Assembly (NCBI GenBank): GCA_965215885.1
Contig: CBDCEW010000085.1
Location: 1 to 64,000 of the forward strand
Source of the DNA: Candidatus Moanibacter sp.
GTDB taxonomy: Bacteria; Verrucomicrobiota; Verrucomicrobiia; Opitutales; UBA2987
DNA: 64,000 nucleotides
Direction: 5' to 3'
The notes under the pieces: model-generated
The model's input: the letters and a program-made list of their open reading frames with translations, nothing else
Databases searched by the model: none
What the model was told of the DNA's origin: nothing
Translations under genes and position numbers: made by a program
Shown here: in pieces, positions 19,854 through 52,750 of the stretch
How the letters are laid out: every line of letters starts with the position of its first letter
Position numbering within the stretch: position 1 is the first letter of the stretch

Positions 19854-20206
19854 TCAAGACAGAAACAGCGTACCGCCCGGAGCTTTCGGTCGAACTTCTG
19901 TAAGCCTACACGCACCGGGCGGCGCCTTCTATTTGTCTCGGCGAGGCCGGGAACGGGACAACAGCCGGGTCAGGCTCCGGCTCTCCGGCGCGTGAGCTGA
20001 CATTCGACGTAGAACGCCCAGTTTGTATCATTTGATTCCGCTGAAAGCCCCCACGTTCTTGCGAACGCGGCTACAAATATCAAAGACTTGCGGGTCACCG
20101 TAGCCGCGTTCGCAAGAGCGTGGTCGCGAATTTCGAAACGGCGTCTTTTTCAGCAAAATGGTCATGTGTATCCTGAGCAAGTTCACGGTTCACGGAGAGT
20201 ACGCGG
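19854..20206. repeat. 353-bp direct duplicate of 21057-21410
   Basis: By-eye alignment gives about 16 differences over about 354 bp. Confidence 0.95.
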
Positions 20207-20882: not shown

Positions 20883-21056
20883 GTCGAATAATGTGTTTCG
20901 AATTTAGACTACGATTATGACTACGAATTTCGATTAGGAACTAGCTAAGTAGCCCATCGAACGTCGTCGTCATAATCGTCGTCGATAGTCGGTCGAGAAA
21001 GATTACCAGCACGATTACGATTACGATTACGGCATGGCCAGAGGGACACTTCTGGG

Positions 21057-21202
21057 TCAAGACAAAAACAGCGCACCGCCCGGAGCTTTCGGTCGAACTT
21101 CTGTAAGCCTACACGCACCGGGCGGCGCCTTCTTTTTGTCCCGGCCAGGCCGGGAACGGGACAACAGCCGGGTCAGGCGCCGGTTCTCCGACGCCTGAGC
21201 TG
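21057..21202 (-). other. Structured spacer resembling the segment 3' of TR in HRDC-class DGRs
   Basis: Minus strand CAGCTCA-hairpin-TGACCCGGCTGTTGTCCCGTTCCCGG..CCGGGACAAAAAG..CCGCCCGGTGCGTGTAG..CGAAAGCTCCGGGCGG; resemblance recalled from memory, not searched. Confidence 0.5.
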
Positions 21203-21254
21203 ACATTCGACGTAGAACGCCCAGTTTGTGTCATTTGATTCCGCTGAAAAGCCC

Positions 21255-21327
21255 CCACGTTCTTGCGAACGCGGCTACAAATATCAAAGGCTTGCGGGGC
21301 ACCGTAGCCGCGTTCGCAAGAACGTGG
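21255..21327. repeat. REP doublet (REPIN-like), perfect 24-bp inverted repeat
   Basis: CCACGTTCTTGCGAACGCGGCTAC (21255-21278) / GTAGCCGCGTTCGCAAGAACGTGG (21304-21327); GTAG end typical of RAYT-associated REPs. Confidence 0.85.
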
Positions 21328-21490
21328 TCGCGAATTTCGAAACGGCGTCTTTTTCAGCAAAATGTTCATGTGTATCCTGAGCAGGTTCACGGTTCACGGA
21401 GAGTACGCGGTGGCCTCGCAGAAAACGGTTCAACTTCTCCTGTCCTTCCTCAGCCGCCGTTGTAGGAATCATAAGTAAAGCAAATTGCAT
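21284..21490 (-). pseudogene. Truncated N-terminus of an HRDC-type DGR accessory protein
   Basis: MQFALLMIP...EKLNRFLRGHRVLSVNRE matches the N-terminal motif of HRDC proteins found in DGR cassettes; after about 39 codons it runs into repeat DNA. Confidence 0.65.
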
Positions 21491-21506
21491 GTCTTAAACC
21501 GGTGCC

Positions 21507-21562
21507 GAAGGGCGACTTGGCGGGGGCGGCTTCGCCTCCTCACCCCCGCCACGACGCCCTTC
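21507..21562. other. GC-rich hairpin downstream of the putative DGR target gene
   Basis: GAAGGGCG..TGGCGGGGG / CCCCCGCCA..CGCCCTTC stems. Confidence 0.65.
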
Positions 21563-21710
21563 TCCCCGTACTGTACCTATTACTCACTTGACCTGCATGC
21601 CAGGGCGCAGCCATTCATGGCGTAGACCGGAGGGCAAGGCGGACCTGTCTTGGCACCGCCCCTCGATTGGGTGGATTCGGCCGCACTACTGGGAAGACTA
21701 CGCGAAGTTG

Positions 21711-24095
21711 TCAGTTCTGGACCTTGCGCAGGCAGAGCCGGAAGCCCAGGAATTCGTAGCGGTAGACGGCCGGGCCCCTGCCGCGGCTGGCCGACCGGCA
21801 GAACTGCGCGTCGTTTTCCCAGCCGCCGCCGCGGCGCACGCGGTACCAACCCGATTCGGGTCCCTTCGGATCCACCCTTCGGCCCGTCGGATACTCACCG
21901 TACCAGTCCGAACACCATTCCCATAGGTTACCATGCATATCATACAATCTCCATTGGTTCGGCTCGTAGCTGCCCACTTCGACCGTCTTTTTCAAGTACG
22001 GCCCCTTCCCTCCTCCACCGTAAGGATAGTTTCCATCGAAATTCGCCTGTCTCGAGGACAGACTGTCGCCATAGCGAAAAGCCGTCCTCGTCCCCGCCCG
22101 TGCCGCATATTCCCACTGCGCCTCGGTCGGAAGGCCGTACATATACCCATCCGGCAGCCGCCCCGCGGCGCGCTCGCGCTCAGTCAATTTCATTGCAAAA
22201 TTCGTGGCATCCTCCCAGGATACATTCTCCACCGGCGCCCGATCTCCCGCCTCCTTGAATTTACTCGGATTACTGCCCGTGATACGCTTGTACTCCCCCT
22301 GTGTCACCTCATACTGCCCCAGCCAGAAGCCTTTCGTCAATACTACCTCGTACAGAGGGTCTCATCACTACCCCGCCCCGACTCTCTCGCCGGGCTCCCC
22401 ATCATGAACGTCCCCGGGTTAATCCAGACCATCTTCAGCCCAAGGTCAGGGACCGTCCATGGCTCCCCTTCCACCGGGCCCGAAACTTCCTCCGCCGCCG
22501 TATCCCTTATTCTCAGGCTCCCCGCCGCCTTTTCCAGCGTGACGCTGAGCCGTTTATCCTCTCGGGCTTTAAGCTCAAAAGCTTCAACGTAATCACGGTA
22601 GCCCGAGGCCGAGAGCACAACCCGATATTTCTTCAAGGGCTCCTGTTCTCCCGCCGTATAGGGCGTCACTCCAGCCCGCACTCCGTCGATCTCCACCTCC
22701 GCTCCGCTCGGAGAAGAGAGGATGACAAGCGATCCAGGCAAGGGTTGCAGCCCAACCTCGACGACAACCAGCCGATTCTCTTCAATCACTATTTCGGCAA
22801 TCCCGGAATCACGGAAATCCTTTTTGCGGACTAGAATCATCCGGTTTCCGACAGCCATTCCATCCTTTAATTCGAAGAGCCCGTTGACATCACTCTTGCC
22901 GAGCAATGTGCCGGGTTCCGCTATGCGGCCATCAGGCGACCGGTCAACCAGGAAAATCTCAGAATCCGGAAGCGTGTTTACCAGAAGGCTTCCGAAGGCC
23001 GGCACTCCCTCTCCCTGCTCTTCTCCACCCCTTTCTTCGCGCACGATTCGTATCGCCTCAGGTCGCTTTTCTTCCCCCTCCTTCCCGGGCAGATACACGC
23101 CCCAGTAATAGCCCGCCGCCAGCCCCGCAACGAGGATGAGCGATAACGTGGCCCATACCGGCGCCCTGGATTTTCCCTTCTTCTCGGGACCGATCTCAAT
23201 TCGCCTCAAATCGCCCAGAACCTCTTCGGCGCTCCCATACCGCTCGGAACGCTCCAGCTCCATGCAGCGGTCAATTACGGCGTCCCACGTTTCGCTCGCC
23301 TCAGGAACCAGATCCGCGATCGCCTTTGCCCGCCCCAGCGGCTTCCTCCCAGTCAGCAAGTAGTAGCCCATGACTCCCACCGCGTAGAGGTCGCTGCGCT
23401 CGTCAGCCGGGCGGCCTTCCCGCACCTCCGGGCTCATATAATCAATCGTTCCTACATATGATTCGCTACCCGAAGAGCCCGCCACCTGGGTCTCCTGATC
23501 CCCCAATTGCGAGAGGGCAATGCTCTTCCGGATCATCGTCTGCAGGAATTCCTCGCCCACCACCCGGACCAGCCCGAAGTCCGAAATCTTGATCCTCCCT
23601 GCTGCTGTGCGCAGGATATTCGCCGGTTTGAGATCGCGGTGAATAATCCCCTCTCCATGGGCATAGCGCAGTCCCTCCAGCATCTGCGTGAGAATGTCCA
23701 CAACCTCCTCGGGCCTTATCCGACCGCCCTGATTCCTGAGGTAGTCTTCAAGGCTGCCCCCCTCGACATACTCCATCGCAAGGTAGAATCGGCCACGGTC
23801 CTCCCCGGCGTAGAGAACCTGCACAATCTGGTTATGCTTCAGCTTTGCCAGCGTCTTCGCTTCGCGTCGGAACCGTTCCCTGAAGTTTCCCCTCTTCGAA
23901 AGCCCGCGCGGCAGCACCTTCAGCGCATATTTCTGCTCGAGGTGCACCTGCTCCGCAAGATACACCTCGCCCATCGCCCCGCGGCCCAGTTCCTCAATGA
24001 TGCGGTAATCGCCCAGGCGCTCTCCCGGCCTCAGGACACCGGGACCGGTCCGGGCCTTCGCCCGCCAGCCGCGTCTCGTCGGAATCAAAAGGCAT
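21711..24095 (-). pseudogene. Ser/Thr kinase-TM-PEGA-FGE/sulfatase (SUMF1, CLec-fold) protein, frameshifted; putative DGR target
   Basis: Kinase motifs LGRGAMGEVY, ALK, HRDLKPAN, DFG, GTIDYMSPE; TM segment; PEGA 'SSPSGAEVEIDG..GVTP'; FGE motifs PGTFMMGS, YEVTQ, LPTEAQWEYAARAG, DMHGNLWEW, RGGGW, GFRL; split over ORFs 22343-24202 and 21711-22340. Confidence 0.9.
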
Positions 24096-25022
24096 GATGA
24101 GGGAAGTGGAAGCGTGAGAGTGAAAGGCGCCATCGTAACCGCGTCCTTTCCAGCGTCAAGGCTGTGGGACGGCTCCCATTTGCTCTCGGCACCGGACCCC
24201 ACTTCGCTCCCCCCTGAGCGGGACTACGAGCGTCAAGAGCGGTACAGCTACCCGGGCTTCAAGTGTGCACAAGGGCCCCATCCCGTAGCCGGACGACTTC
24301 GTCGTTCGGGTAATCCCGGCCAGGTAGATTACCTGTCCCTGATTTTCGACCCTGCCCACAGCTCATCGGTTGCTATCCCTCCCCCTTTCGCGATTTTTCG
24401 CGTGTTTAGCGGGCAATTCCCCATCCCGTAGCCGGACGACTTCGTCGTTCGGGTAATCCCGATGTCCAGCCGAGTACGGATCGAGGCATAAAGCCTCTCC
24501 TACAACCTGACGGTCGTCGATGCGGCCGACTGTCTTCGATGAGGATTGCGTGGATATCCGTTCGAAGGTCGTAATCGTAGTCGAAAGTCGTAATTCTACG
24601 CGCGACGAAGTTTGGGCAACAATCCTGCCCTGGAATAGAGTCCGACAAACTGCTCGACAACGTTCGAACAAAGGCGATTCGAACTCCTCCACTGAGTTTC
24701 GTCTTCCTTTTAGTCCGGACCACCGGTAAGGGAAACCTTGCCTGCCTCGGCAAAGCGAAGCGGCGACGGGTCCCGAACCTTGTCGAATCCATTTCGATTT
24801 CAGATCACGATTATGACTACGATTACGAATGGATGGAAATCTGTCCGAACCTCGTCGTCGTAATCGTAGTCGACGTTCGACTTTACCCTCATCCGTTGCC
24901 GTCCCTTTCCCGGCCTGCCGGGACTGCCAAACTCTCCCGGCTCATCCCAATGAATCCGGCCTGAATGATTCTAACAACTCCTGCTACTGCCGAGGGCTGC
25001 CTCCACAACGGAAAACCCGACC

Positions 25023-41567: not shown

Positions 41568-41703
41568 CAAAATACAAAGTTGACGCTCGATCAAAGTGAA
41601 TCGGAGAGTGGTACGAGTGATTTCTCGGATAGATCGTTCGATAAAGATCGCTGCGCTCCGAGGACGAGGACGATATCTAATCCGCCAACTGGCAATTTTC
41701 CCA
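41568..41703. repeat. Dispersed repeat of about 135 bp, copy at 52498-52633
   Basis: CAAAGTTGA..CTCGATCAAAGTGAATCGGAGAGTGG..GATCGTTCGATAAAGATCGCT..GAGGACGAGGACGA..TCCGCCAACT. Confidence 0.9.
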
Positions 41704-41759
41704 CTCGAAAACACCTAGAATTATGGCCCGAAAACCCCCATCTACATTGAAGTCTCGAG

Positions 41760-42878
41760 TCAGCGGGACTCTACGACCGGTGCTGGGACCACTCCCTCCT
41801 CGACTCTTGTCCGTCGAATTAGAATCCGCGAAACCAAAACCGTTAATAACAATCCAACTGCGAGAACACCCACTGGCTCCAAGCTGCTGTGAGACCAAAT
41901 ATAACCCGGAGTCGCCTTAACCACAATCCCCCAATCGTGACCTGCGTGGGCGACCTTCTCTTTAATACTCAACCCTTTCAGGGCAGCAGCCGCTTCCCCA
42001 AATGAAGCAAATGATACCCGCGGCTCCCATTCTATAACCTCGACAAAGAGAAACGGCTGTTTATTCCTGTCCATCAAGTCGTAAAACCATAACTGAATAT
42101 CATCCAGGGCGACAAACTCCAGCGCCGACAGAACCATGTCTCCAGATCGATACGCACCTTCCAGATAGCCCAACAGTTGCTCTTGGCGCTGTTCTTTCGT
42201 ATGGGGTGTAGAGCCGCCCGAATAGATGGGAGTGAGCAGTGTGTAGGAATTCTGCAAGCCCGCCTCCTGTTTGAGACGGAATGGCAGGGAGATAACTACC
42301 TCCCCGGAATCGCGAGCTCTCTCCAAAGCGTTGTGCTGCCTCTCATTCGAGCTGATATCCAATCCGAGGGCGGATCTGTTTCCTTCGATCGGTTCGGTAA
42401 AGAGAATGGGAAAATACTCTTTGCGAAGGGCCGCCCGGCTGTGGGTTCGTATACGTCCCTCATCGAGGAACTGAAAATCTGGAGAGTACTCTCTTCGCCC
42501 GAATGCTTCCCAACTTTCGCGCTCTTCGTGGCTAATCCGTGGCACCCAATTCATAGCTGCCAATCCCGTATTGGCTTTTACGATCGGACCTGCAACTTCC
42601 TTGAACACCTCACGACCAAAAGGAAGGCTCTGCCCCAAAAGTACAGCTGCCGTTTCAAGTTCCCTTACATTATTTCTAGCGGCCTCTCCAAGCGCCACCA
42701 CTACCACTGCCGCTGTGCCTTCGAACTCATCACGGATCTTCAAATACTCTCTGCCCCACAAGACTGCGAAGGCGACTATAGACAGGCCTAACCCTACACA
42801 TCCGCACGAGCAGATGCAAAAGATACACTTCTTGCTTCGCCCCTTCTTCGGTCCCGTCTCTTCAGTTTCACTACTCAT
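41760..42878 (-). CDS. CHASE-domain membrane protein without output domain
   Basis: TM-[W.PRI...ER, YFPILFTEP...N.SALGLD...ALERARDSG....S.PFRL.QE]-TM with a short tail. Confidence 0.85.
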   Translation of the reverse strand: MSSETEETGPKKGRSKKCIFCICSCGCVGLGLSIVAFAVLWGREYLKIRDEFEGTAAVVVVALGEAARNNVRELETAAVLLGQSLPFGREVFKEVAGPIVKANTGLAAMNWVPRISHEERESWEAFGRREYSPDFQFLDEGRIRTHSRAALRKEYFPILFTEPIEGNRSALGLDISSNERQHNALERARDSGEVVISLPFRLKQEAGLQNSYTLLTPIYSGGSTPHTKEQRQEQLLGYLEGAYRSGDMVLSALEFVALDDIQLWFYDLMDRNKQPFLFVEVIEWEPRVSFASFGEAAAALKGLSIKEKVAHAGHDWGIVVKATPGYIWSHSSLEPVGVLAVGLLLTVLVSRILIRRTRVEEGVVPAPVVESR

Positions 42879-42943
42879 TAGTCCGCTTTCCCCACGAATA
42901 TTCGAAGCTCTTTGAACAACAGAACGGTTCTACCTTCGCCATA

Positions 42944-44968
42944 TTAACGAAACCGTTTCAGAAAAGCATCCATCATGGTATAGAGCTCTATCTGGTTTTC
43001 AACCTTGCGAAAACCATGTCCTTCGTCTTTTTTCACCAACCAGACAAAATCCTTTCCCCTCTTTCTCAGCTCCCGGCGGAGCACCTTCGCATGATCGATG
43101 GGGACTCGCGGATCTTGACTGCCGTGTACGATGAATATCGGTGCTTGGATCCTCTCGATGTAATTAATGGGAGAGAAGCGCGCCAGGAGATCCCTGTCAT
43201 TTTCGGGATGTCCAATCGTTCGGCAATAAAAACCGTAGACCATCTCCTGTTTCCATTTTCTCCTCCAGTTGATCAGCTCTATGAGATCGACTGGGCCAAA
43301 TGCGCTGATACCAAACTTATAGATCTCCGGGAATTTCGTAAGCTGCGCTAATGCGGCATACCCGCCGTAGCTGGATCCATAGATCCCAATAGAATTTGGG
43401 TCGGCGATTCCTCGTTCCGTTGCCCATTTCACTCCATCGACAAGATCAGTCTGCATATTCGAGCCCCATAGTTTGTCACCGGCATGGAGGAAAGCCCACC
43501 CATATCCCAACGATGAACGGAAATCTATCTGAAGGACGGCAAATCCCCGATTGGCGAGAAACTGCACCACGGGATTATATCCCCATGAATCACGCACCCA
43601 CGGGCCTCCATGCGGGTGAACAATAAGCGGTAGGTTGCGGGGTTCCTGATCTGTTGGAAGGGTTAGATAGCCATGCAAGGGTGTTCCATCTCGAGCTTCA
43701 AAGCGGATCGGCCTCATCTCTCCCAGCATGGAGGTCTCGATGACCCGGTTGTCGGCGAGAATCTCCAGATTCAACTCACCCTTATCGATACTGAGTAATG
43801 AATAAACCACGGGGTGGCGATCGGAGTAGCTCGCTACCACCATTTTTGTATGATCATCACTCGTGTTTACGACTCGACTGTGGAACCCTGGAAACTTCCT
43901 CTCCAGATACGCCTGAATAATCCGCTTCTCCTCATCAAACCAGAAGACTTCGGGCTTTTCGGTTTCGTAATATACACCAAGTGGTCTCTCCAAAAAGTCC
44001 GATAGTTGGAGGTCGACGACATCATGTGAGGGAGTCTGGAAAAGCATTCGCCCCATCTCTTTCGCTTGCGGGTCAAATTCGAAAATTGCCGATACCGTTC
44101 GCCCGATTTCGCTCGCCACATACAGTTTCAAGTGATCATAGCTGAACGGTTGGGGAGGAGGGACCAGGATCGGCATCTGGTCAAATTCGGGAGGTCCAAC
44201 CGGGCGCCACTTCGCCTTTCCAAAAGGGAAATAGGCAATTTCACCCCAATCCTTCTTCCCTTTCTCGCGAAAATAATACGTCACTCCACCATCATGATCC
44301 CTCGCCTCGCCCAAACGAACTTCGCCATCCTGATCTGTGCGCCACCCCGTAAAATTGCCCGGATTTCTAACCGCTAAACGTCTCACGCCATTGTTGATAT
44401 TCATCCGATACACATCGGGATAATCGACCCGCCTCTCGTTATTCAGAATTAAGATCTCATCGGGATGGTCTCTGAGCAGATCCAGCGGTCGCGAGTAGCG
44501 AAATACAAAGCTACCGGTGCTTCCCAGAGGTGGAACGAGTGTTCGAAGATTCGAGCCATCACGATTAACGGCGAAAAGTCCCCATGACTCATTGCCATTC
44601 TGATCCATGGTAAACAATATCCGTTCTTTGCTCGCCCACAGATAGTGGTTTATGGTCTGGTCGGTTGTCGCCGTTATCCGGGTGGAAGTGCCCAACTTCA
44701 GGTCGATGACGTAGAGATTCATTCCGTCCTTCCAACTCCCGAGGGCCGAAAGATATTCTCCACTCGGGGAAATCCGAAACCGGGTAAACCCAGGACTGCG
44801 GAAAAAAGACTCCACCGGTATCTCTTCCGCCTGTGCCACAAGAGCGGCGACCAAACCAATCAGAAAAAAGAGAGCTCGGAGGATTCTTATTACTCCAATT
44901 TGCAAATACGATGAGGTGTGTGGGAGCGAGTCGTGCACGGTCGACCGCAGGTCACGATTGAGAGTCAC
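42944..44968 (-). CDS. Secreted S9 family (prolyl oligopeptidase/DAP-like) peptidase
   Basis: PHGGPW, GSSYGG, QDPRV, EGHGF triad; signal peptide; true start probably downstream. Confidence 0.93.
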   Translation of the reverse strand: MTLNRDLRSTVHDSLPHTSSYLQIGVIRILRALFFLIGLVAALVAQAEEIPVESFFRSPGFTRFRISPSGEYLSALGSWKDGMNLYVIDLKLGTSTRITATTDQTINHYLWASKERILFTMDQNGNESWGLFAVNRDGSNLRTLVPPLGSTGSFVFRYSRPLDLLRDHPDEILILNNERRVDYPDVYRMNINNGVRRLAVRNPGNFTGWRTDQDGEVRLGEARDHDGGVTYYFREKGKKDWGEIAYFPFGKAKWRPVGPPEFDQMPILVPPPQPFSYDHLKLYVASEIGRTVSAIFEFDPQAKEMGRMLFQTPSHDVVDLQLSDFLERPLGVYYETEKPEVFWFDEEKRIIQAYLERKFPGFHSRVVNTSDDHTKMVVASYSDRHPVVYSLLSIDKGELNLEILADNRVIETSMLGEMRPIRFEARDGTPLHGYLTLPTDQEPRNLPLIVHPHGGPWVRDSWGYNPVVQFLANRGFAVLQIDFRSSLGYGWAFLHAGDKLWGSNMQTDLVDGVKWATERGIADPNSIGIYGSSYGGYAALAQLTKFPEIYKFGISAFGPVDLIELINWRRKWKQEMVYGFYCRTIGHPENDRDLLARFSPINYIERIQAPIFIVHGSQDPRVPIDHAKVLRRELRKRGKDFVWLVKKDEGHGFRKVENQIELYTMMDAFLKRFR

Positions 44969-45057
44969 GATTAAAAGAGAGTAACCCCATGAAAACTTCC
45001 CGTCGTGATCATAATCGTAATCTGAATTCGAAAGAGGTGCATCTACATGCTGGCGGG

Positions 45058-47877
45058 CTAAAACGTCCTCTTCAGTGAAACCGTAACCGTTCTTCCGTAC
45101 GGATTATAGGCGCCGAGATTAGTATCGTAGCCTTCCTCCTCCGTCACATTGGCGGGAGGATCGCGGTCGGTCAGATTCTTGATGCCGAATATTACCTCGG
45201 TATCAAAAAGGCCAGCATAGGTCAGCTGCAGGTCGAAAACGGTATGACTGTTCACCCTGGGCACCCCGACAAATTCAGTCTTATACCCGGAGGTATAACG
45301 CGACACCAGGGCAAGGCGAAGATTACGGTTGCTGCTGGACCATCGAAACGTGCTGTAGGCTTGATATCGAGGGAGACCGATAAACCCGACGAGATTGAAA
45401 CCCCCCGTAACGTAACGATCGACGTATACGGAATAATGTCGAATCCAGAAATCCCCAAACGTCTCCGTCTTGAAGCGGTAAAATATCTCGAAATCCAGCC
45501 CCTCCAGTGTGACCCCTTCAAAATTCCTGAATTCACTCACAACATAATCGATCTTTCCGGGAATAATAAATGTGATCTGCGGTGTTTCCGGACGCACCCA
45601 GGGCCCATTCGGGTCGCGAAACACACCCGTCATCGCTCCCCGGGTCTCACGGTCCAAGAGGAAAAGGTAGTTGACTGGATCCTCAAAGTAGAAGTCCTCT
45701 TCCGCTGACAATAGTGAAGGGATAGACCGCGTCGCGATCACATTGTCGATTTCCAGCCGCCAGACGTCGAACCCGATTGCCAGATCCTCCAGGAACTTGG
45801 GACTGTAGACTATTCCCGCGTTGAAATACCTGGAGCCTTCCGGCCTGAGGTCCGGATTTCCCTGACGGCGTACTTCGCGGGATCGAAAATCGTCAAAGGG
45901 CCAGGGCGTCCCCTCATCGAAGACACCGAATGTAAAGTTTGTGCGGAGAAAATCTCGCTCCTGCACGAAGCCGCGGGTGATGCCGCCGAAGGCCTGTTCG
46001 AGAGACGGTGCTCGAAACGCTTCGGAGTAGGACGCGCGCAGCAGCACACTGGGAAACGGGCGCATTTTTATTCCTACCTTGGGATTTACGGTGTCGCCAA
46101 AATCGCTGTATTCCTCCCAGCGCGCCGCGAAATGGCCTTCGAGGAACTTGTGAAGGGGAATAATCATCTCTCCATAAAGGCCATATACGTTGCGGCTGCC
46201 TTCCGCCGACGTCCCTCCCGATCCGAATAATAGGAAATTCCCAGCCAATTCCGACTGCAATCGATTCATTGATTCATCGCGAAACTCTACACCGAAATGA
46301 CCGATCGCAGGGCCGGCCGGCAGACTGAACAACTCCTTGCTCATCCCGGCATTGATCTGAAAGAATTCACGATTGCCCGAACGCACATCGTCGGTCGTGA
46401 TCCGGTTGTAAATGGCGGCGTTATTGTCCTCACCGGGAGCCGAGGCGAAGGGATTCAAGGCATCCGCTCCAGTGGCATTGAGAGCTTCTTGAAAGAGATC
46501 GACCCGGATGAGGTTTTTCGTGACCTCCTTTACCACACTTTTTCCGTAGAGTAAAGATAGCTCCCATTGGGCTCCACCCCATTCCCCCTTCAGTCCCGCC
46601 ACTAGTCGAATCAGCTCCGAATCGGTCTCATTCTTTCGTGGGCCCGGATCGAGCGGCCGCAACAGGGAGTCCGTAATGTCCAGTCCACCGGGGGGGACAA
46701 GCGGGCCACTGAAGAAGTTGTCGAATGAAGGGGTAGGATTGAACGGATTGGACGCGGGGATAATGTAACCGCGGTTCAGTGGAGCAGAGGCCAGCTGGTA
46801 GTTCGCGGCGTTGTCCTGGTAACTGAATTCCCCGAAAAATTCCAGTGAGTTGTTGATTTCGTAGCTTCCTAAAAAGCTAATCCCGTAGCGTTCCGCTCCA
46901 CTCACCAGGGTGGCCTCGGTGTTATAGTTGAACCGCTCAAAACCTTCCATATCTTCCGTAGAACCGTCCCCAAAAAAAACGAATAAGTGATTCTCAAGCC
47001 GGGTGAAATCAGCCGGATTTCGTCGCAACCCGAGAAACTCAAAAAACCCGGGATAGCTGTCCCACCCCAGAAGGTTAAACCCGCCTTTATCCGACTGATC
47101 CGGACTGGCCGAGAAGGACCGGTCGCGCCGCATCAAAGGATCTCTCTGATAGTAGTTCACGTGTATTATGATGCTCGACCGCTCAGTTGTCTTGCCCCAG
47201 GTAACGTCTGTTCCCCAGATTGCGACATCATCTTCCCGTGTCGTACCTTCATAATAGACCCTTATCTCCCCTTCTTCGTAATCCTTTCGTAAGATGAAGT
47301 TAATCACCCCGGAGAGCGCATCGGACCCGTATATGGCCGACCCTCCATCTTTCAGAATCTCGATCCTTTCAATCGCGCCCACCGGGATTGCGTTCAAATC
47401 GACGAAGTTTTCTCCTCGCGCCGTCGAAAAAGCGTAGGGCACCATACGGCGACCGTTCAACAGCACCAAAGTCCCTGCTACCCCGGTTCCCCTCAGATTC
47501 GCCTGCGCCCCATCTCCCGCAAAGGAACCGATCTGCCCTGATTCCGACGCTCCTGAAGTAATCGGCAACTGCCCGATCAACTCCGAGAGCTGAGTGACTC
47601 CACTCTCTTCGATCTGCCGCCGATCCAGGGCGATTATCGGCACCTCGTTTTCGAGATCGATCTCCTTGATTCGCGTCCCCGTCACAACAAATCGCTCAAA
47701 TTCTTCGAGCTCATCCTCCTTGTCCTCCACCTCGACCTTCTCTTCGGCCGTCGGGGCCTGCTTCTCCCTCTCCTCATCCGCCCCGGCAATCGGGATGGCC
47801 AATGCCCACACCCAAAAAGACAGGGGCATCCATCGGTGCGGCAGCAGGGCGATTCTTCGATACACGCGTCGGGACAT
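45058..47877 (-). CDS. TonB-dependent receptor
   Basis: VVTGTRI TonB box, NLRG...TLVLLNGRR, IERIEILKDGGSAIYGSDA.SGVINFI, C-terminal Phe. Confidence 0.95.
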   Translation of the reverse strand: MSRRVYRRIALLPHRWMPLSFWVWALAIPIAGADEEREKQAPTAEEKVEVEDKEDELEEFERFVVTGTRIKEIDLENEVPIIALDRRQIEESGVTQLSELIGQLPITSGASESGQIGSFAGDGAQANLRGTGVAGTLVLLNGRRMVPYAFSTARGENFVDLNAIPVGAIERIEILKDGGSAIYGSDALSGVINFILRKDYEEGEIRVYYEGTTREDDVAIWGTDVTWGKTTERSSIIIHVNYYQRDPLMRRDRSFSASPDQSDKGGFNLLGWDSYPGFFEFLGLRRNPADFTRLENHLFVFFGDGSTEDMEGFERFNYNTEATLVSGAERYGISFLGSYEINNSLEFFGEFSYQDNAANYQLASAPLNRGYIIPASNPFNPTPSFDNFFSGPLVPPGGLDITDSLLRPLDPGPRKNETDSELIRLVAGLKGEWGGAQWELSLLYGKSVVKEVTKNLIRVDLFQEALNATGADALNPFASAPGEDNNAAIYNRITTDDVRSGNREFFQINAGMSKELFSLPAGPAIGHFGVEFRDESMNRLQSELAGNFLLFGSGGTSAEGSRNVYGLYGEMIIPLHKFLEGHFAARWEEYSDFGDTVNPKVGIKMRPFPSVLLRASYSEAFRAPSLEQAFGGITRGFVQERDFLRTNFTFGVFDEGTPWPFDDFRSREVRRQGNPDLRPEGSRYFNAGIVYSPKFLEDLAIGFDVWRLEIDNVIATRSIPSLLSAEEDFYFEDPVNYLFLLDRETRGAMTGVFRDPNGPWVRPETPQITFIIPGKIDYVVSEFRNFEGVTLEGLDFEIFYRFKTETFGDFWIRHYSVYVDRYVTGGFNLVGFIGLPRYQAYSTFRWSSSNRNLRLALVSRYTSGYKTEFVGVPRVNSHTVFDLQLTYAGLFDTEVIFGIKNLTDRDPPANVTEEEGYDTNLGAYNPYGRTVTVSLKRTF

Positions 47878-48463
47878 CGGAGTTCGGTATCTTATCCACT
47901 CACGCTACAACACCCTTGCCGGCATGACCACTCTAAAATGTCCCCTAGAAAATTCCGGTGCCTGCGACATTGTCGATTCTCCGATCTCTTATCCGCCCCT
48001 GTCACGGCCCATTTCCACCCTTGCCGAACGCTTATGAACCCAACCGCCCATTTATTAGGGACAGGTAATTTATCTGATTCCGCTCCGGCGGATCTCAAAT
48101 GCGGAAATTCTCGGCAGATCCCTATTCTATCGCACATTTGCCAGCTTCACAGTCCCGAATTCTCCACAATCAGCCCCCAGGAATTCCAATGGTAGTCTGC
48201 GTTTATGCCCTCTTATTCTTATAAACTACTTATTCATATCTCCCATCTCAAACTTCTACCATCTGCTAGGTATAAATAGCCTGTCCCTTATTCTGACCCC
48301 AGAACATCCAGTGATACACTGCATCAACACCCCTTAAATTCATAGATTGCTTATTCATAGCTCCTAATTCGATTTTTCGCCTGCGAATCGGTATAGATTG
48401 CCTGTCCCTTATTCTGATCTCCGCACTTGCGCTGAGGGCGGTGAAGTTTACCTTTACTCGGCG

Positions 48464-50653
48464 ATGGAGCTGCACAAGGCGTTAAAACAATACTTCCATT
48501 TCGATAGGTTTCGGCCTGGGCAGGAGGAAGTAGCGGCCGCCATTCTGAGTGGGACTGATGCCATGGTAGTTATGCCGACGGGCGGAGGAAAGTCGCTCTG
48601 CTACCAGCTGCCGGCTCTGATGATGGAGGGAGTCGCAGTGATTGTCTCTCCACTGATCGCTCTAATGAAAGATCAGGTCGACTCGTTGAGAGAGCAGAAA
48701 ATAGAGGCCACGTTTATAAACAGTAGCCTAAGCGGGAGAGAACAGCGCGAGAGGATCGATGCGGTGAGGCAAGGGCGAATCCGGCTGGTCTATATCGCAC
48801 CGGAACGTTTTCGGCAGGCCCGCTTTGTAGAGGCACTGAAGAAGGTAACAATTTCATTTTTCGCTGTCGACGAAGCTCATTGCGTCTCGATGTGGGGACA
48901 CGATTTCCGTCCCGACTATCTTCGGCTCGGTGGCACGTTTGAAGCGCTGGGTCGCCCCCCGGTGGCAGCCTTTACGGCTACCGCTACTCCGGAAGTGCGG
49001 CAGGACATAAGGGACCTCCTCCGCCTCCACGACCCGCGAGAGTGCGTTACCGGTTTCGCACGCCCGAACCTCGAGTTTCGAGTGACCCAGGTTAGCTCGA
49101 CCGCTGAGAAATACCTGAGGCTGAGCGAGTTAATCGACGGAAATCGAACCGGCATAATCTATTGCGCGACCCGAAAGCGCGTCGAGGAGGTCGCGGAGCG
49201 TCTGAAAAGCTGGGACATCGCCCATATCGCCTATCACGCCGGGTTGGATGATGCGGAACGGAAACGTGCCCAGGAGAGATTTCTGCAAAGAAAATCCGAC
49301 GTGGCCGTGGCCACAAACGCATTCGGGATGGGAATCGACCGGGCCGACATTCGGTTTCTGGCGCACTTCGAGATGCCGGGCAGTGTTGAAGCCTATTACC
49401 AGGAAGGGGGTCGCGCGGGCCGCGATGGAAAACCGGCAGTCTGCGAACTGCTGTTCAATTACGCGGATAAGCGCGTGCAGGAATTCTTCATCGAAGGCAA
49501 CAATCCGAGCAAGGCTGTGATCGTGGATGTTTACACTCATTTGCGTCGATTGGCTGATAGCCATAGCGAAGTACGGCGGTCGATAAGGGACCTCACGTCA
49601 GAGATGAGCTACGGCAATAATTCTCTGCAGGTGAACGCTTCCCTCACCATCCTGAACCGCATGGGCGTGATCGAGCGCTTCGATATTCCCGGAGAACGAA
49701 TCCGGGGCACGCGTCTTCGGCAACCCGACTTACAACCCCATGCGCTCAATCTCGATGCGGCTGCTCTGGCTGAAAAGGACCAGCGCGATCGCGGCAAACT
49801 TCAAGCTATGATCCAATACGGCTACGCCGAACGATGCCGACAGGCCTGGATATTGCATTATTTTGGCGAAAGAGACGCACAGCCCTGTGGTTGCTGCGAC
49901 CGTTGTAACGAGGCGCCTCCGAAAGACTTGCGTGAACCGACTAACGATGAAGCGGTTATTTTGCAGAAAGCGCTGAGCGGTGTCGCCCGCGCCTCGTGGC
50001 GTGGGGGATCTTCATCAAGATGGCAGGCCCGCTACGGTCTTAATCGCATTGTCCAGATGTTAGTCGGCAGCCGCAGCCGGAATGTGCTCGATGCCCGTCT
50101 CGATACACTCTCCACCTACGGTCTCTTAAAGGAAGAGGGTCTCCCCTATGTTAAATCCCTCTTTGCCGCAATGGAAAGGGCCGGCCTCGTTCAAGCGACC
50201 GACGATCAATACCGCATGATCACCCTTACCTCCCTGGGGGAGCAGGTGATGAAGGGGCAGTCCACCGTCAAACTCGATTGGCCCGAGCGAAAGGCGCGCC
50301 GTCCAAAAAAGCATGCATCACCCGTGGCCGAAACAACCTCATCCGAGACCGAAGTCGGTAAAGAACTCTACGAAGCGCTCAAATCAAAGCGCCTCCAACT
50401 CGCCAAAGCCCGCGGCAATGTTCCGGCATATACAATTTTTTCCAACCGCTCCCTGCTCGGATTAGCCTCGATGAAACCGTTGACGGTGGAAGAAGCCATG
50501 GCTATCCCAGGAATCGGCAAAGTAAGAGCGCGTACCGTCCTCCCGGCTTTCCTCAAAATCATCGCCCAACATCGGGTGGATTCCGAGACCAAAGGAGGAC
50601 GAAATGCTTCCGTCCCGGCGCGCCGGGACTACGCTTGTGATCGGGAAATGTAG
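48464..50653 (+). CDS. recQ: RecQ family ATP-dependent DNA helicase
   Basis: PTGGGKSLCYQLP, VDEAHC.S.WGHDFRP, QEGGRAGRDG, Zn-binding CR..CGCCDRC, RQC and HRDC regions. Confidence 0.95.
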   Translation: MELHKALKQYFHFDRFRPGQEEVAAAILSGTDAMVVMPTGGGKSLCYQLPALMMEGVAVIVSPLIALMKDQVDSLREQKIEATFINSSLSGREQRERIDAVRQGRIRLVYIAPERFRQARFVEALKKVTISFFAVDEAHCVSMWGHDFRPDYLRLGGTFEALGRPPVAAFTATATPEVRQDIRDLLRLHDPRECVTGFARPNLEFRVTQVSSTAEKYLRLSELIDGNRTGIIYCATRKRVEEVAERLKSWDIAHIAYHAGLDDAERKRAQERFLQRKSDVAVATNAFGMGIDRADIRFLAHFEMPGSVEAYYQEGGRAGRDGKPAVCELLFNYADKRVQEFFIEGNNPSKAVIVDVYTHLRRLADSHSEVRRSIRDLTSEMSYGNNSLQVNASLTILNRMGVIERFDIPGERIRGTRLRQPDLQPHALNLDAAALAEKDQRDRGKLQAMIQYGYAERCRQAWILHYFGERDAQPCGCCDRCNEAPPKDLREPTNDEAVILQKALSGVARASWRGGSSSRWQARYGLNRIVQMLVGSRSRNVLDARLDTLSTYGLLKEEGLPYVKSLFAAMERAGLVQATDDQYRMITLTSLGEQVMKGQSTVKLDWPERKARRPKKHASPVAETTSSETEVGKELYEALKSKRLQLAKARGNVPAYTIFSNRSLLGLASMKPLTVEEAMAIPGIGKVRARTVLPAFLKIIAQHRVDSETKGGRNASVPARRDYACDREM

Positions 50654-50870
50654 CGGAAAGCGGGAGCTTTTCGGCGCCGTTGGATTGAATCCAGAAGATA
50701 GTTCCGAAATCCCTGGTAACCTTGTCGCGAACCTCGTCCCGAACCTTGTCGAGCTACACAAAAGATGGTAGACAAAGGGTAAGATAAACTCGCACCTACG
50801 GGCGTGGTTTTCGGTTCTAAGAAGTGTCTGCGAACCGCCCGGAGACCCTCACCGGCAGTAAAGTCTCAGA

Positions 50871-51083
50871 TCAGGCCCTTTCAGGCAAAGGCTGTCCGAC
50901 GGCATGGGCAATATCTCTTACGTCCTGTTCGAGCAGTTTCGTAATTACCGCAACGCGCATGCCGAGATTCTTAAGAGCAATGGCCGTATAATAGGCCGTG
51001 CCCCCGGGCATCTCGAATTCACCCTCTGCGGTGCGCACGAGGTCCTTCGTTACGTGGCCAACCACACAGACATCGAACATCAT
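50871..51083 (-). pseudogene. N-terminal fragment of a PfkB-family kinase
   Basis: VVGHVTKD...PGGTAYY; only about 60 aa. Confidence 0.7.
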
Positions 51084-51224
51084 CGGTTTCCCACCACATC
51101 CTGATCAAGTAGATCACCGCTGACGACAACAATGTTCATCCCGCGCACCTGTCCTCCGAAGTCCCGGCCCGCTGGGACGAAAGATGGAAGCGCGGTCCTA
51201 CATGCCTCGCCTTCGCCGTCATAC

Positions 51225-52323
51225 TTACGCTTCGAATATTGGCTGCTTCGGCGCGAATTTGCGATTCAGTTTCAGATCCCGGGTTTCCAGGGGGAGGGCG
51301 ACGCGGGCGCCTCCAAGACGGTGGGATTCGATGAAGGCAAAGATAATCTCGAGGTTGATGCAGGCCACGCGAATCCCCCCCCGGGTAGGACGGCCGCTAT
51401 CAAGGGCCCGCACGATATCCTCAATCAGCGTCAAGGTCGAACTGCGCCTTTCGAATTCGGGAAACGATCCGGGTCGGTAGATGGGATACGGGGCACCTGC
51501 GACGCTGTGGCGCTCGTAGACTTCCCATTTCTGACCGTTATTGCGGGCCGTGACCGTCCCGGATTCGCAAATGGCCTCAAAATCGACTCGGCGGGCGGTA
51601 TGGAGAGCGTACCCGCGAACCCCGCCGGGAAATTGAACGATGCCTTCCCCGACCGGATCGATCGCGAGATCACCGTCACGATAGAGCTTGTTATCGCCTT
51701 CTCTGAGGGTGGCCTGCACCCATTCGGGAGCGACATCGCCGGCCATCGTGAGCATGAGGTCGAGAGTGTGGCTGGCGGTGTTGAAGAGCGTCCCGTTACC
51801 GTAGATGATGAATGATTCGAGAGCGCCGTATTTTCCGCTCTCGATGAGGGCTTTCAACTCCAAATAACCCACCTCCCAACGCCGGTTGGTTCCCATATTA
51901 AAAACTGTTCCATTCCCTTCGATGGCATTGCGCATGGCGTCGGCTTCTTCCAGGGAAGCCGCCAGCGCCTTCTCAGCGTAGATCGCTTTGACGCCATAGT
52001 TCGCGGCGTGGATAACGATTTCGGCCCGTTGTTCGGGCTGGGTCGCGACGCTAACGATGTCCGGAGACTCTCTTTTTATCATGTCGCGATAGTCGGAATA
52101 CCGTTTCTCTCCGGGAACATCATATTCCTCACCGAAACGCACCATAACCTCTTCACGGACATCGGAACAGGCCACGATCCGGGTGCGCGGGCAGGCCCGG
52201 TAACCGGCCGCGTGAGAAAACGGGCGCATAACGGCTGCGAGGTCTCGGTAGGTGATCTACCTCATTATCGATAAAGGCGCCCATCCGGCTGCAGCCGATG
52301 ATTGCTGTGCGGTAGGTGATCAT
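51225..52323 (-). pseudogene. Gfo/Idh/MocA oxidoreductase with N-terminal frameshift
   Basis: MITYRTAIIGCSRMG in one frame; SHAAGY...PDIVSVAT...YAEKA in another. Confidence 0.8.
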
Positions 52324-52750
52324 GCCAGAGTATCTAATTACCGTACCGCACGAAAAGGCGAGCGTTTCCATGATGCGGTGCCTGGATTTACCGTCTCGAA
52401 ATCGTTCCGGTTCAAACGGGAGTGAGCCGCAGCACTCGAGTGCTCAGGGTTACGAGCCCTCCTCTATAACGTCCTCGTCCTCGTGCTCGAAACAAGCCAA
52501 AACACAAAGTTGATCCTCGATCAAAGTGAATCGGAGAGTGGCAGGAGTGATTTGTCGGATGGATCGTTCGATAAAGATCGCTCCGAGGACGAGGACGAGA
52601 ACGATACCTAGTCCGCCAACTTGCAATTTCCCCGGTTGAATGGTGCGAAAATCATCACCCTCGAACCCGCTCTGCCGTACGGCAGAGAAGTTTCAGGTTA
52701 CGACAAAGGGAACGATTGAATTCATTGCTTCAGGTAGCTAGAAACACTTC

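Follow-up and report, generated by a model that had tools for sequence, protein, structure and literature searches.

We analysed a 64,000-nucleotide stretch of a Candidatus Moanibacter genome (hereafter the window; positions 1-64000 of contig C85, assembly G000, 6.36 Mb in 105 contigs). The window very probably carries the remnant of an Architecture-C diversity-generating retroelement (DGR), the class with an HRDC accessory gene. This DGR would have diversified the outward C-type lectin (CLec) tip of a kinase. It would then have lost HRDC, reverse transcriptase (RT) and template repeat (TR) as one block, the target decaying afterwards. Along the minus strand we found a kinase, a transmembrane (TM) helix and a PEGA domain; an FGE-CLec part with an end like a variable repeat (VR); a GC inverted repeat; an HRDC stub; a repetitive extragenic palindromic (REP) doublet; the motif CAGCTCA with a spacer; ATG CCG; and GATTAC repeats. 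A first-pass annotation, made from the sequence alone, had proposed a gutted DGR at this position.

An HRDC stub and a structured spacer follow the target

The stub begins at ATG 21490. Its open frame runs for 68 codons, of which about 35-41 are HRDC-like; the 39 codons first given to it fit the HRDC-like part and not the open frame. Matches to the stub occur in eight of 400 genomes of the phylum. Six of the eight open a full protein with a Pfam HRDC domain and have an RT next; the remaining two are truncated as well. By itself the stub matches no Pfam or NCBIfam model. A phmmer search of 1.84 billion representatives returned three matches; one, to a repeat protein, is spurious and the other two are short N-termini of HRDC proteins. 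The distance from target stop to HRDC start, ~220 nt, is as in intact cassettes. Within it lies a 20-bp inverted repeat, ~150-200 nt beyond the stop, and the full 220-nt stretch is not unusually stable (z = -1.3). Here and below, published studies are cited for those parts of each that were accessible; in Wu et al. (2018, PMC5758913), GC-rich inverted repeats just after the initiation of mutagenic homing (IMH) sequence occur in only 34% of DGRs. The exact 42-nt intergenic pattern was found at 0 metagenome loci, in a search that may omit very near genomes. The matches to the stub identify it as the N-terminus of a DGR HRDC protein. We did not count as a DGR gene an HRDC-like match at C85:50222 that extends over the C-terminal HRDC domain alone, at 26%.

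Truncation near the same point recurs elsewhere. Of 13 truncated HRDC genes with flanking DNA, eight stop at model positions 37-42 (~6 lineages; examples are L025, L113-L118 and the stub in the window). Full-length matches number 145, and search bias can explain part of this peak. That a stub ending at codons 37-42 is a minimal, selected remote-target module, and not random decay, seems to us rather unlikely.

To locate the spacer we used a DNA profile of 40 segments lying just 3' of the TR in intact loci, with the window excluded. The profile matches 21202-21064 at E = 1.9e-11 and a local duplicate at 3.6e-10; the next best match in the genome has E = 0.24. The match opens at CAGCTCA, the conserved final bases of the TR, and only these last 7 nt of the TR remain in the window. 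The spacer folds with z = -4.5. In a 22-segment alignment (A5: window 21058-21204, L061:8620-8770 and 20 others) it is ~140 nt long, with invariant GTAG and CGAA motifs, and 18 of 20 predicted pairs show double-sided changes. None of 500 shuffles reached this level and slid controls were 37-49% paired; these controls overstate certainty, since the segments are related to one another and the structure was itself derived from this alignment. No Rfam family covers the spacer; sub-threshold matches to miRNA hairpins in the region were rejected. Taken together, the data identify the spacer as the RNA segment 3' of the TR in HRDC-class DGRs. The Sp RNA of the Bordetella phage DGR is likewise a ~140-nt structured non-coding RNA directly 3' of the TR (Handa et al., 10.1101/2023.10.23.563531), a likeness of length and position. 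By this analogy the spacer may have a role in priming. The attribution of both stub and spacer to a DGR, made in the first-pass annotation, is thus upheld: stub homologues lead into full HRDC proteins followed by RTs, and the spacer is found next to TRs in other genomes.

Gene order in intact cassettes and the deletion scar

Alignments of HRDC proteins yielded 152 partly redundant HRDC loci, of which 82 could be resolved for order and 70 could not. The order was HRDC-RT-TR at 77 loci, RT-TR-HRDC at two (L092, L097) and something else at three; HRDC-TR-RT was seen at none. One locus outside this set (L027) has TR-HRDC-RT. An FGE gene lies no more than 700 bp upstream of HRDC in 92 of 100 loci with enough flank, and the RTs of the class begin MKR.. 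immediately after HRDC. From HRDC start to TR end the median is 1598 nt in 42 intact loci, compared with 288 nt in the window; hence, one block of about 1.5 kb was lost. We conclude that the original order was target-HRDC-RT-TR-spacer, and that the block held the HRDC C-terminus, the RT and the TR body. The earlier picture of several parts removed by several repeat insertions gives way to a single contiguous loss.

The REP doublet occupies the scar junction and may have caused the loss. This ~130-bp palindromic repeat, whose hairpin has a folding z-score of -6.8, recurs as 84 merged copies in the rest of the genome. The stub-REP junction rests on the assembly and its duplicate, with no listed contig bridging it, and a contig of run X4 (21075-21276) bridges the REP-to-spacer junction. 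A 354-bp copy of stub end, REP, TR tail and spacer lies 1.2 kb downstream; a portion of the spacer is found again at G000:C84:29313-29426. In runs X1, X3 and X4, only the spacer alleles of the duplicate were seen.

Separately, an intact DGR (L024:1943-2707, the same as L061) has an extra open reading frame (ORF) between HRDC and RT, with many short repeats around it. Pfam gives no match for this ORF; from its motifs, we presume that it resembles a REP-associated tyrosine transposase.

The target ends in a probable former variable repeat

The VR-like end of the target carries an unusual third-position bias. In its third codon positions C occupies 24 of 36 and T 0 of 36; upstream the counts are 13 and 12 of 62 (p = 1e-5 and 0.003, respectively). 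Eleven of 12 bona fide VRs share this rise in C. Compared with the consensus of 30 foreign TRs, the VR differs at 22 of 32 adenine positions. Across three paralogous VRs of G000, variation falls on 23 of 30 columns with a TR adenine and on 14 of 78 other columns. Differences between the window VR and that of a paralogue on contig C86 fall 12/13/5 by codon position, compared with 7/7/13 upstream (p = 0.02), and the ~50 nt just 5' of the VR are identical in the two genes. These patterns support the target C-terminus as a probable former VR with a strong but indirect signal of adenine mutagenesis. The call of a VR-like end, made in the first-pass annotation, is strengthened by both the third-position signal and the paralogue columns.

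No DGR machinery was found in the assembly

G000 holds two RTs, both of group II intron type (above the TIGR04416 cut-off), and a profile of 12 DGR RTs found no further RT in the 6.36 Mb. Similarly, BLASTN, a motif scan and a TR profile detected no TR in G000; the profile finds only five A-poor gene ends. The loss of RT and TR that had been proposed therefore agrees with these searches, and a TR-like homologue, missing from the assembly, is present in relatives. Contigs spanning the VR match the window without a difference in run X1 and with one letter changed in each of X3 and X5 (three runs, three studies), a comparison of contigs in which rare variants are dropped and low-level activity could be missed. 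The one diverged VR contig listed, from X4, is the C86 paralogue (34 substitutions and 5 gap letters in both). We did not find the features of a functional DGR here, namely RT, TR and ongoing VR diversification, and with high confidence regard the locus as an inactive HRDC-class remnant.

The target has a receptor-kinase architecture broken by two frameshifts

Pfam detects Pkinase, PEGA and FGE-sulfatase domains in the target. The kinase domain (~24007-23240) has intact GRGAMG, ALK, HRDLKPAN, DFG and SPE motifs. A hydrophobic helix at 23164-23090, preceded by the basic sequence KKGKSR, separates it from PEGA (~22735-22526). This succession, from a kinase with its catalytic motifs intact through one TM helix to an ectodomain, matches that of Hanks-type single-pass receptor kinases. 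For the CLec domain, Treponema denticola TvpA (2Y3C) is the best PDB match both by sequence (E = 1.8e-23) and by fold (E = 4.4e-8, TM-score 0.59, from a model whose VR part has pLDDT < 50). Unlike the target, TvpA shows neither kinase nor TM nor PEGA in the match; it is a surface lipoprotein. The KKGKSR patch before a modestly hydrophobic helix, and general knowledge of Hanks-type receptor kinases, suggest that the kinase lies inside the inner membrane with the PEGA stalk and CLec outside. The CLec would then face the periplasm of a probably diderm host, and ligand binding would be coupled to kinase output.

No single reading frame unites kinase and CLec in the target. The first-pass annotation had the domain architecture right, by Pfam and the helix, and missed two frameshifts in what it took for one gene. 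One extra base near 24048 closes the frame from ATG 24095 after 33 codons, and two extra bases near 22354 split kinase-TM-PEGA from FGE/CLec. These changes, +1 and +2, sum to 3 nt, so target start and stop appear in frame. Both are carried without gaps by contigs from three runs of three studies (X1, X3 and X4). Assembly error was thereby rejected as their source, with the caveat that the best-holding run may be the source sample. The second frameshift is missing from one 98%-identical contig of run X5. To judge from its frame, an upstream ATG at 24133 could yield kinase-TM-PEGA without CLec.

The features are collected in Table 1. By ORF reading, thiamine-phosphate synthase-like and rfaE/dnaJ-like genes flank the region, in which short dispersed repeats are abundant. 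Comparison with genomes of the phylum would place the host in the Verrucomicrobiota. Elsewhere in the window, 10.8 kb (~41577-52336) is 99.7% identical to G000:C102:177010-187758, either a recent duplication or an assembly or binning artefact.

Table 1. Features of the DGR remnant and its surroundings in the window.
Feature	Position	Strand	Basis or remark
Original target start (MPFDSDET, as in paralogues)	23994..24095	-	Frame ends after 33 codons via +1 nt near 24048; ungapped contigs of X1, X3, X4 span the change
Open frame with kinase, TM and PEGA, without CLec	22343..24133	-	Translatable only from ATG 24133, not used by paralogues
Second frameshift, +2 nt relative to paralogues, at start of FGE/CLec domain	22352..22358	-	In contigs of X1, X3, X4
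FGE-sulfatase/CLec domain, TvpA-like, severed from kinase frame	21711..22340	-	Pfam; PDB matches
Probable former variable repeat (RVxRGG...GFR)	21738..21842	-	Adenine-mutagenesis footprint
GC-rich inverted repeat, 20-nt arms	21507..21562	-	~150-200 nt past stop; kept behind C86 paralogue
5' stub of DGR HRDC accessory gene	21374..21490	-	Homology to DGR HRDC proteins
REP-doublet/MITE (miniature inverted-repeat transposable element)-like palindromic repeat, two inverted GTAG-led arms, at deletion scar	21232..21362	.	Genome-wide copies
CAGCTCA, final bases of lost template repeat	21196..21202	-	Profile register with TR end
Post-TR spacer RNA of HRDC-class DGRs, two covarying helices	21064..21195	-	Profile match, covariation
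ATG CCG and GATTAC-type repeats, outside DGR	21001..21035	-	ATG CCG at 21035; not kept in duplicate
Local duplicate (~96%) of stub end, REP, TR tail and spacer	19854..20206	-	Sequence comparison

Proposed history and alternatives

In the history that we favour, the DGR RT would have copied an RNA spanning TR and spacer, making errors at adenines, and the resulting cDNA would have overwritten the last ~105 nt of the kinase-TM-PEGA-CLec gene. The ligand-binding surface of a single-pass Ser/Thr receptor kinase would thereby have been rewritten. The single ~1.5-kb block (HRDC C-terminus, RT and TR body) would then have been lost, with a REP doublet at the junction. Finally, the scar would have been duplicated locally and the target would have gained its two frameshifts. 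We infer both the past activity at this locus and the order of these events.

Several observations weigh against a DGR remnant of this kind. The target TM helix has a modest score (KD 1.63), and G000 is 90.3% complete and 5.5% contaminated. None of eight same-family genomes has an HRDC match (nine candidates scored per genome) and no intact orthologous locus was seen in them. The VR also departs from the foreign-TR consensus at 12 of 76 non-A positions, a comparison for A-specificity made with foreign TRs in place of the cognate one. Protein constraint in the CLec scaffold also places variable columns on the TR-A columns. A family relative with no detected DGR RT (L209) has the same third-position C rise, 23 of 36; the signal may outlast DGR activity or be less specific than assumed.

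The gutted cassette could instead be a live remote target that keeps its cis signals, the VR being rewritten in trans by a complete DGR that sister strains, or stretches of this genome missing from the assembly, would carry. Genome G729 offers a parallel. There, the similarly arranged L116, in which a target has an HRDC stub to codon ~41 that is fused to the 3' half of the spacer, coexists with a complete DGR, L084; the L116 VR and L084 TR have 17 differences, 16 at adenines (counted by eye; L116:5681-6222, L084:6001-7760). Degenerate loci beside complete ones are also known in Thiohalocapsa (10.1101/2023.09.22.558884). Furthermore, the completeness of G000 is 90%, and the second frameshift is missing from one X5 contig. 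We nevertheless consider a live target quite unlikely. The 6.36 Mb contain no detected DGR RT or TR, the VR is near-identical across three runs of three studies with the listed diverged contig explained by the C86 paralogue, and the target gene is doubly frameshifted. Moreover, a DGR-type RT is present in only one of ten stub-bearing genomes searched.

It is very improbable that the receptor gene was never a target and that a DGR fragment of other origin came to lie behind an ordinary kinase-PEGA-FGE gene. Such genes do exist without HRDC (C105, G003), and the cognate TR is missing here. However, the ~220-nt spacing from stop to HRDC and the adjacency of FGE and HRDC match intact cassettes. 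In addition, a second paralogue, on C86, ends in the same hairpin and a decayed HRDC start, and its VR differs mainly at codon positions 1 and 2 with ~50 nt upstream identical. Hardly credible is the order first suggested for this locus, target-HRDC-TR-spacer-RT, with the RT severed after ATG CCG by GATTAC repeats. The spacer does come after the TR, and other orders occur (L027; L092 and L097). Conversely, the suggested order is that found at 0 of 82 resolvable loci, and the string 'HRDC-TR-RT' is absent from the accessible part of the table of Wu et al. (2018, PMC5758913). Class RTs start directly after HRDC, ATG CCG is not kept in the duplicate, and no RT similarity follows it. On its sequence context ATG CCG is not an RT start; the RT would have lain upstream of the TR and was not removed by GATTAC repeats.

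Paralogues, relatives and intact analogues

Contig C86 (L003:1767-12400) carries three kinase-TM-PEGA-FGE copies in tandem. One is unbroken (959 aa), one is split by a DDE transposase and one is rearranged with two FGE ends; behind the rearranged end, the hairpin and decayed HRDC start are followed by a Fic gene. Kinase-PEGA-FGE genes without HRDC occur elsewhere in the genome and family (C105, G003). A DNA search of 40 relatives found no orthologous locus, only FGE or REP matches, and the RT matches given by three of eight same-family genomes all share 25-34% identity with a DGR RT. FGE genes with VR-like ends are also present at L209 (G005:C16), L210 (G003:C15), L211 (G013:C101) and L212 (G000:C105), some with kinase and PEGA upstream; HRDC, spacer and DGR RT were undetected at these four loci, which are possibly older orphan targets.

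Intact-looking analogues lie further afield. Ten of the 55 loci that have an FGE gene and 3 kb of upstream sequence contain a same-strand upstream kinase, that of L070 probably being a separate gene. Kinase-TM-CLec targets, two of them with PEGA, stand beside HRDC-RT(-TR) cassettes in other bacteria of the Planctomycetes-Verrucomicrobia-Chlamydiae (PVC) group (L081, L093 and L096). L096 (Opitutaceae) has an unbroken 832-aa kinase-TM-PEGA-CLec gene, then HRDC, then the first part of an RT. In L093 (Verrucomicrobiae) a kinase-TM-PEGA..CLec target is accompanied by a complete HRDC-RT-TR, and 21 of 22 TR/VR mismatches are at adenine. At L081 the target is kinase-TM..CLec (1884 aa), with 20 of 21 mismatches at adenine; at L111 the count is 15 of 20, with a deletion in HRDC-RT. 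L104 and L126 have kinase..CLec targets with a hydrophobic segment between the domains (in L126 read by eye). We rate as even the chances that PVC bacteria harbour a living family of single-pass Ser/Thr receptor kinases whose periplasmic CLec tips are hypermutated by HRDC-class DGRs (L081, L093, L096, L104, L111 and L126). As evidence for our reading of the window locus, the analogues are limited in that the L096 contig ends before any TR and the L093 target has one frame break in its assembly.

Comparison with known systems

Architecture C (target gene-HRDC-RT-TR) is known from Pelodictyon phaeoclathratiforme, Desulfobacter postgatei and Thiorhodococcus drewsii (Wu et al., 2018, PMC5758913). 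Those DGRs and the window share the accessory gene, the order and the C-terminal CLec1/FGE class of VR; in the window, by contrast, HRDC is reduced to a stub and RT and TR are gone. No kinase target stands in 10 HRDC rows of that study, and three of its kinase-FGE (b12) rows belong to cyanobacterial Avd-type DGRs. The degenerate DGR loci of Thiohalocapsa PB-PSB1 (Dore et al., 10.1101/2023.09.22.558884) share MITE-like repeats replacing RT or TR, duplicated target loci and TM-anchored targets with periplasmic CLec, with Pkinase among the target domains. Thiohalocapsa keeps one complete locus per class, whereas none was found in G000; the accessible text of that study does not contain 'HRDC'.

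Cyanobacterial kinase-CLec variable proteins (Vallota-Eastman et al., 2020, PMC7517822) similarly fuse a Hanks-type kinase to a hypervariable CLec, and tuning of signalling has been proposed for them. Unlike the window target, most are predicted to be cytosolic; one row includes remote targets that combine kinase, TPR and transmembrane regions. PEGA is absent from the accessible text of that paper and its searched supplements. CLec targets annotated as Pkn1/PknD are known (PMC11661182), and PEGA is among the DGR target domains of Roux et al. (10.1101/2020.04.01.020958), in the accessible part without a kinase-TM-PEGA-CLec architecture. Thus, HRDC cassette order, kinase-CLec targets and repeat-gutted DGRs have each been published separately. 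The combination of kinase-TM-PEGA-CLec with an HRDC DGR was not found in the literature searched; the supplements of Roux, Dore and Handa may list it.

Significance

The spacer provides a conserved, covarying RNA for the Avd-less HRDC class that is lacking in Rfam. As a probe, it finds DGR remnants invisible to RT- or TR-based tools. What the window locus, itself dead, offers is a lead to HRDC-class DGRs with kinase-TM-(PEGA)-CLec targets that look intact. The idea of signalling through diversified binding has so far been proposed mostly for cytosolic cyanobacterial kinases. In the intact-looking analogues one could ask directly whether binding diversified by a DGR leads, on the other side of a membrane, to phosphorylation. 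If the proposed PVC family is real, it would comprise receptor kinases with a retro-diversified ectodomain that relay recognition across the membrane.

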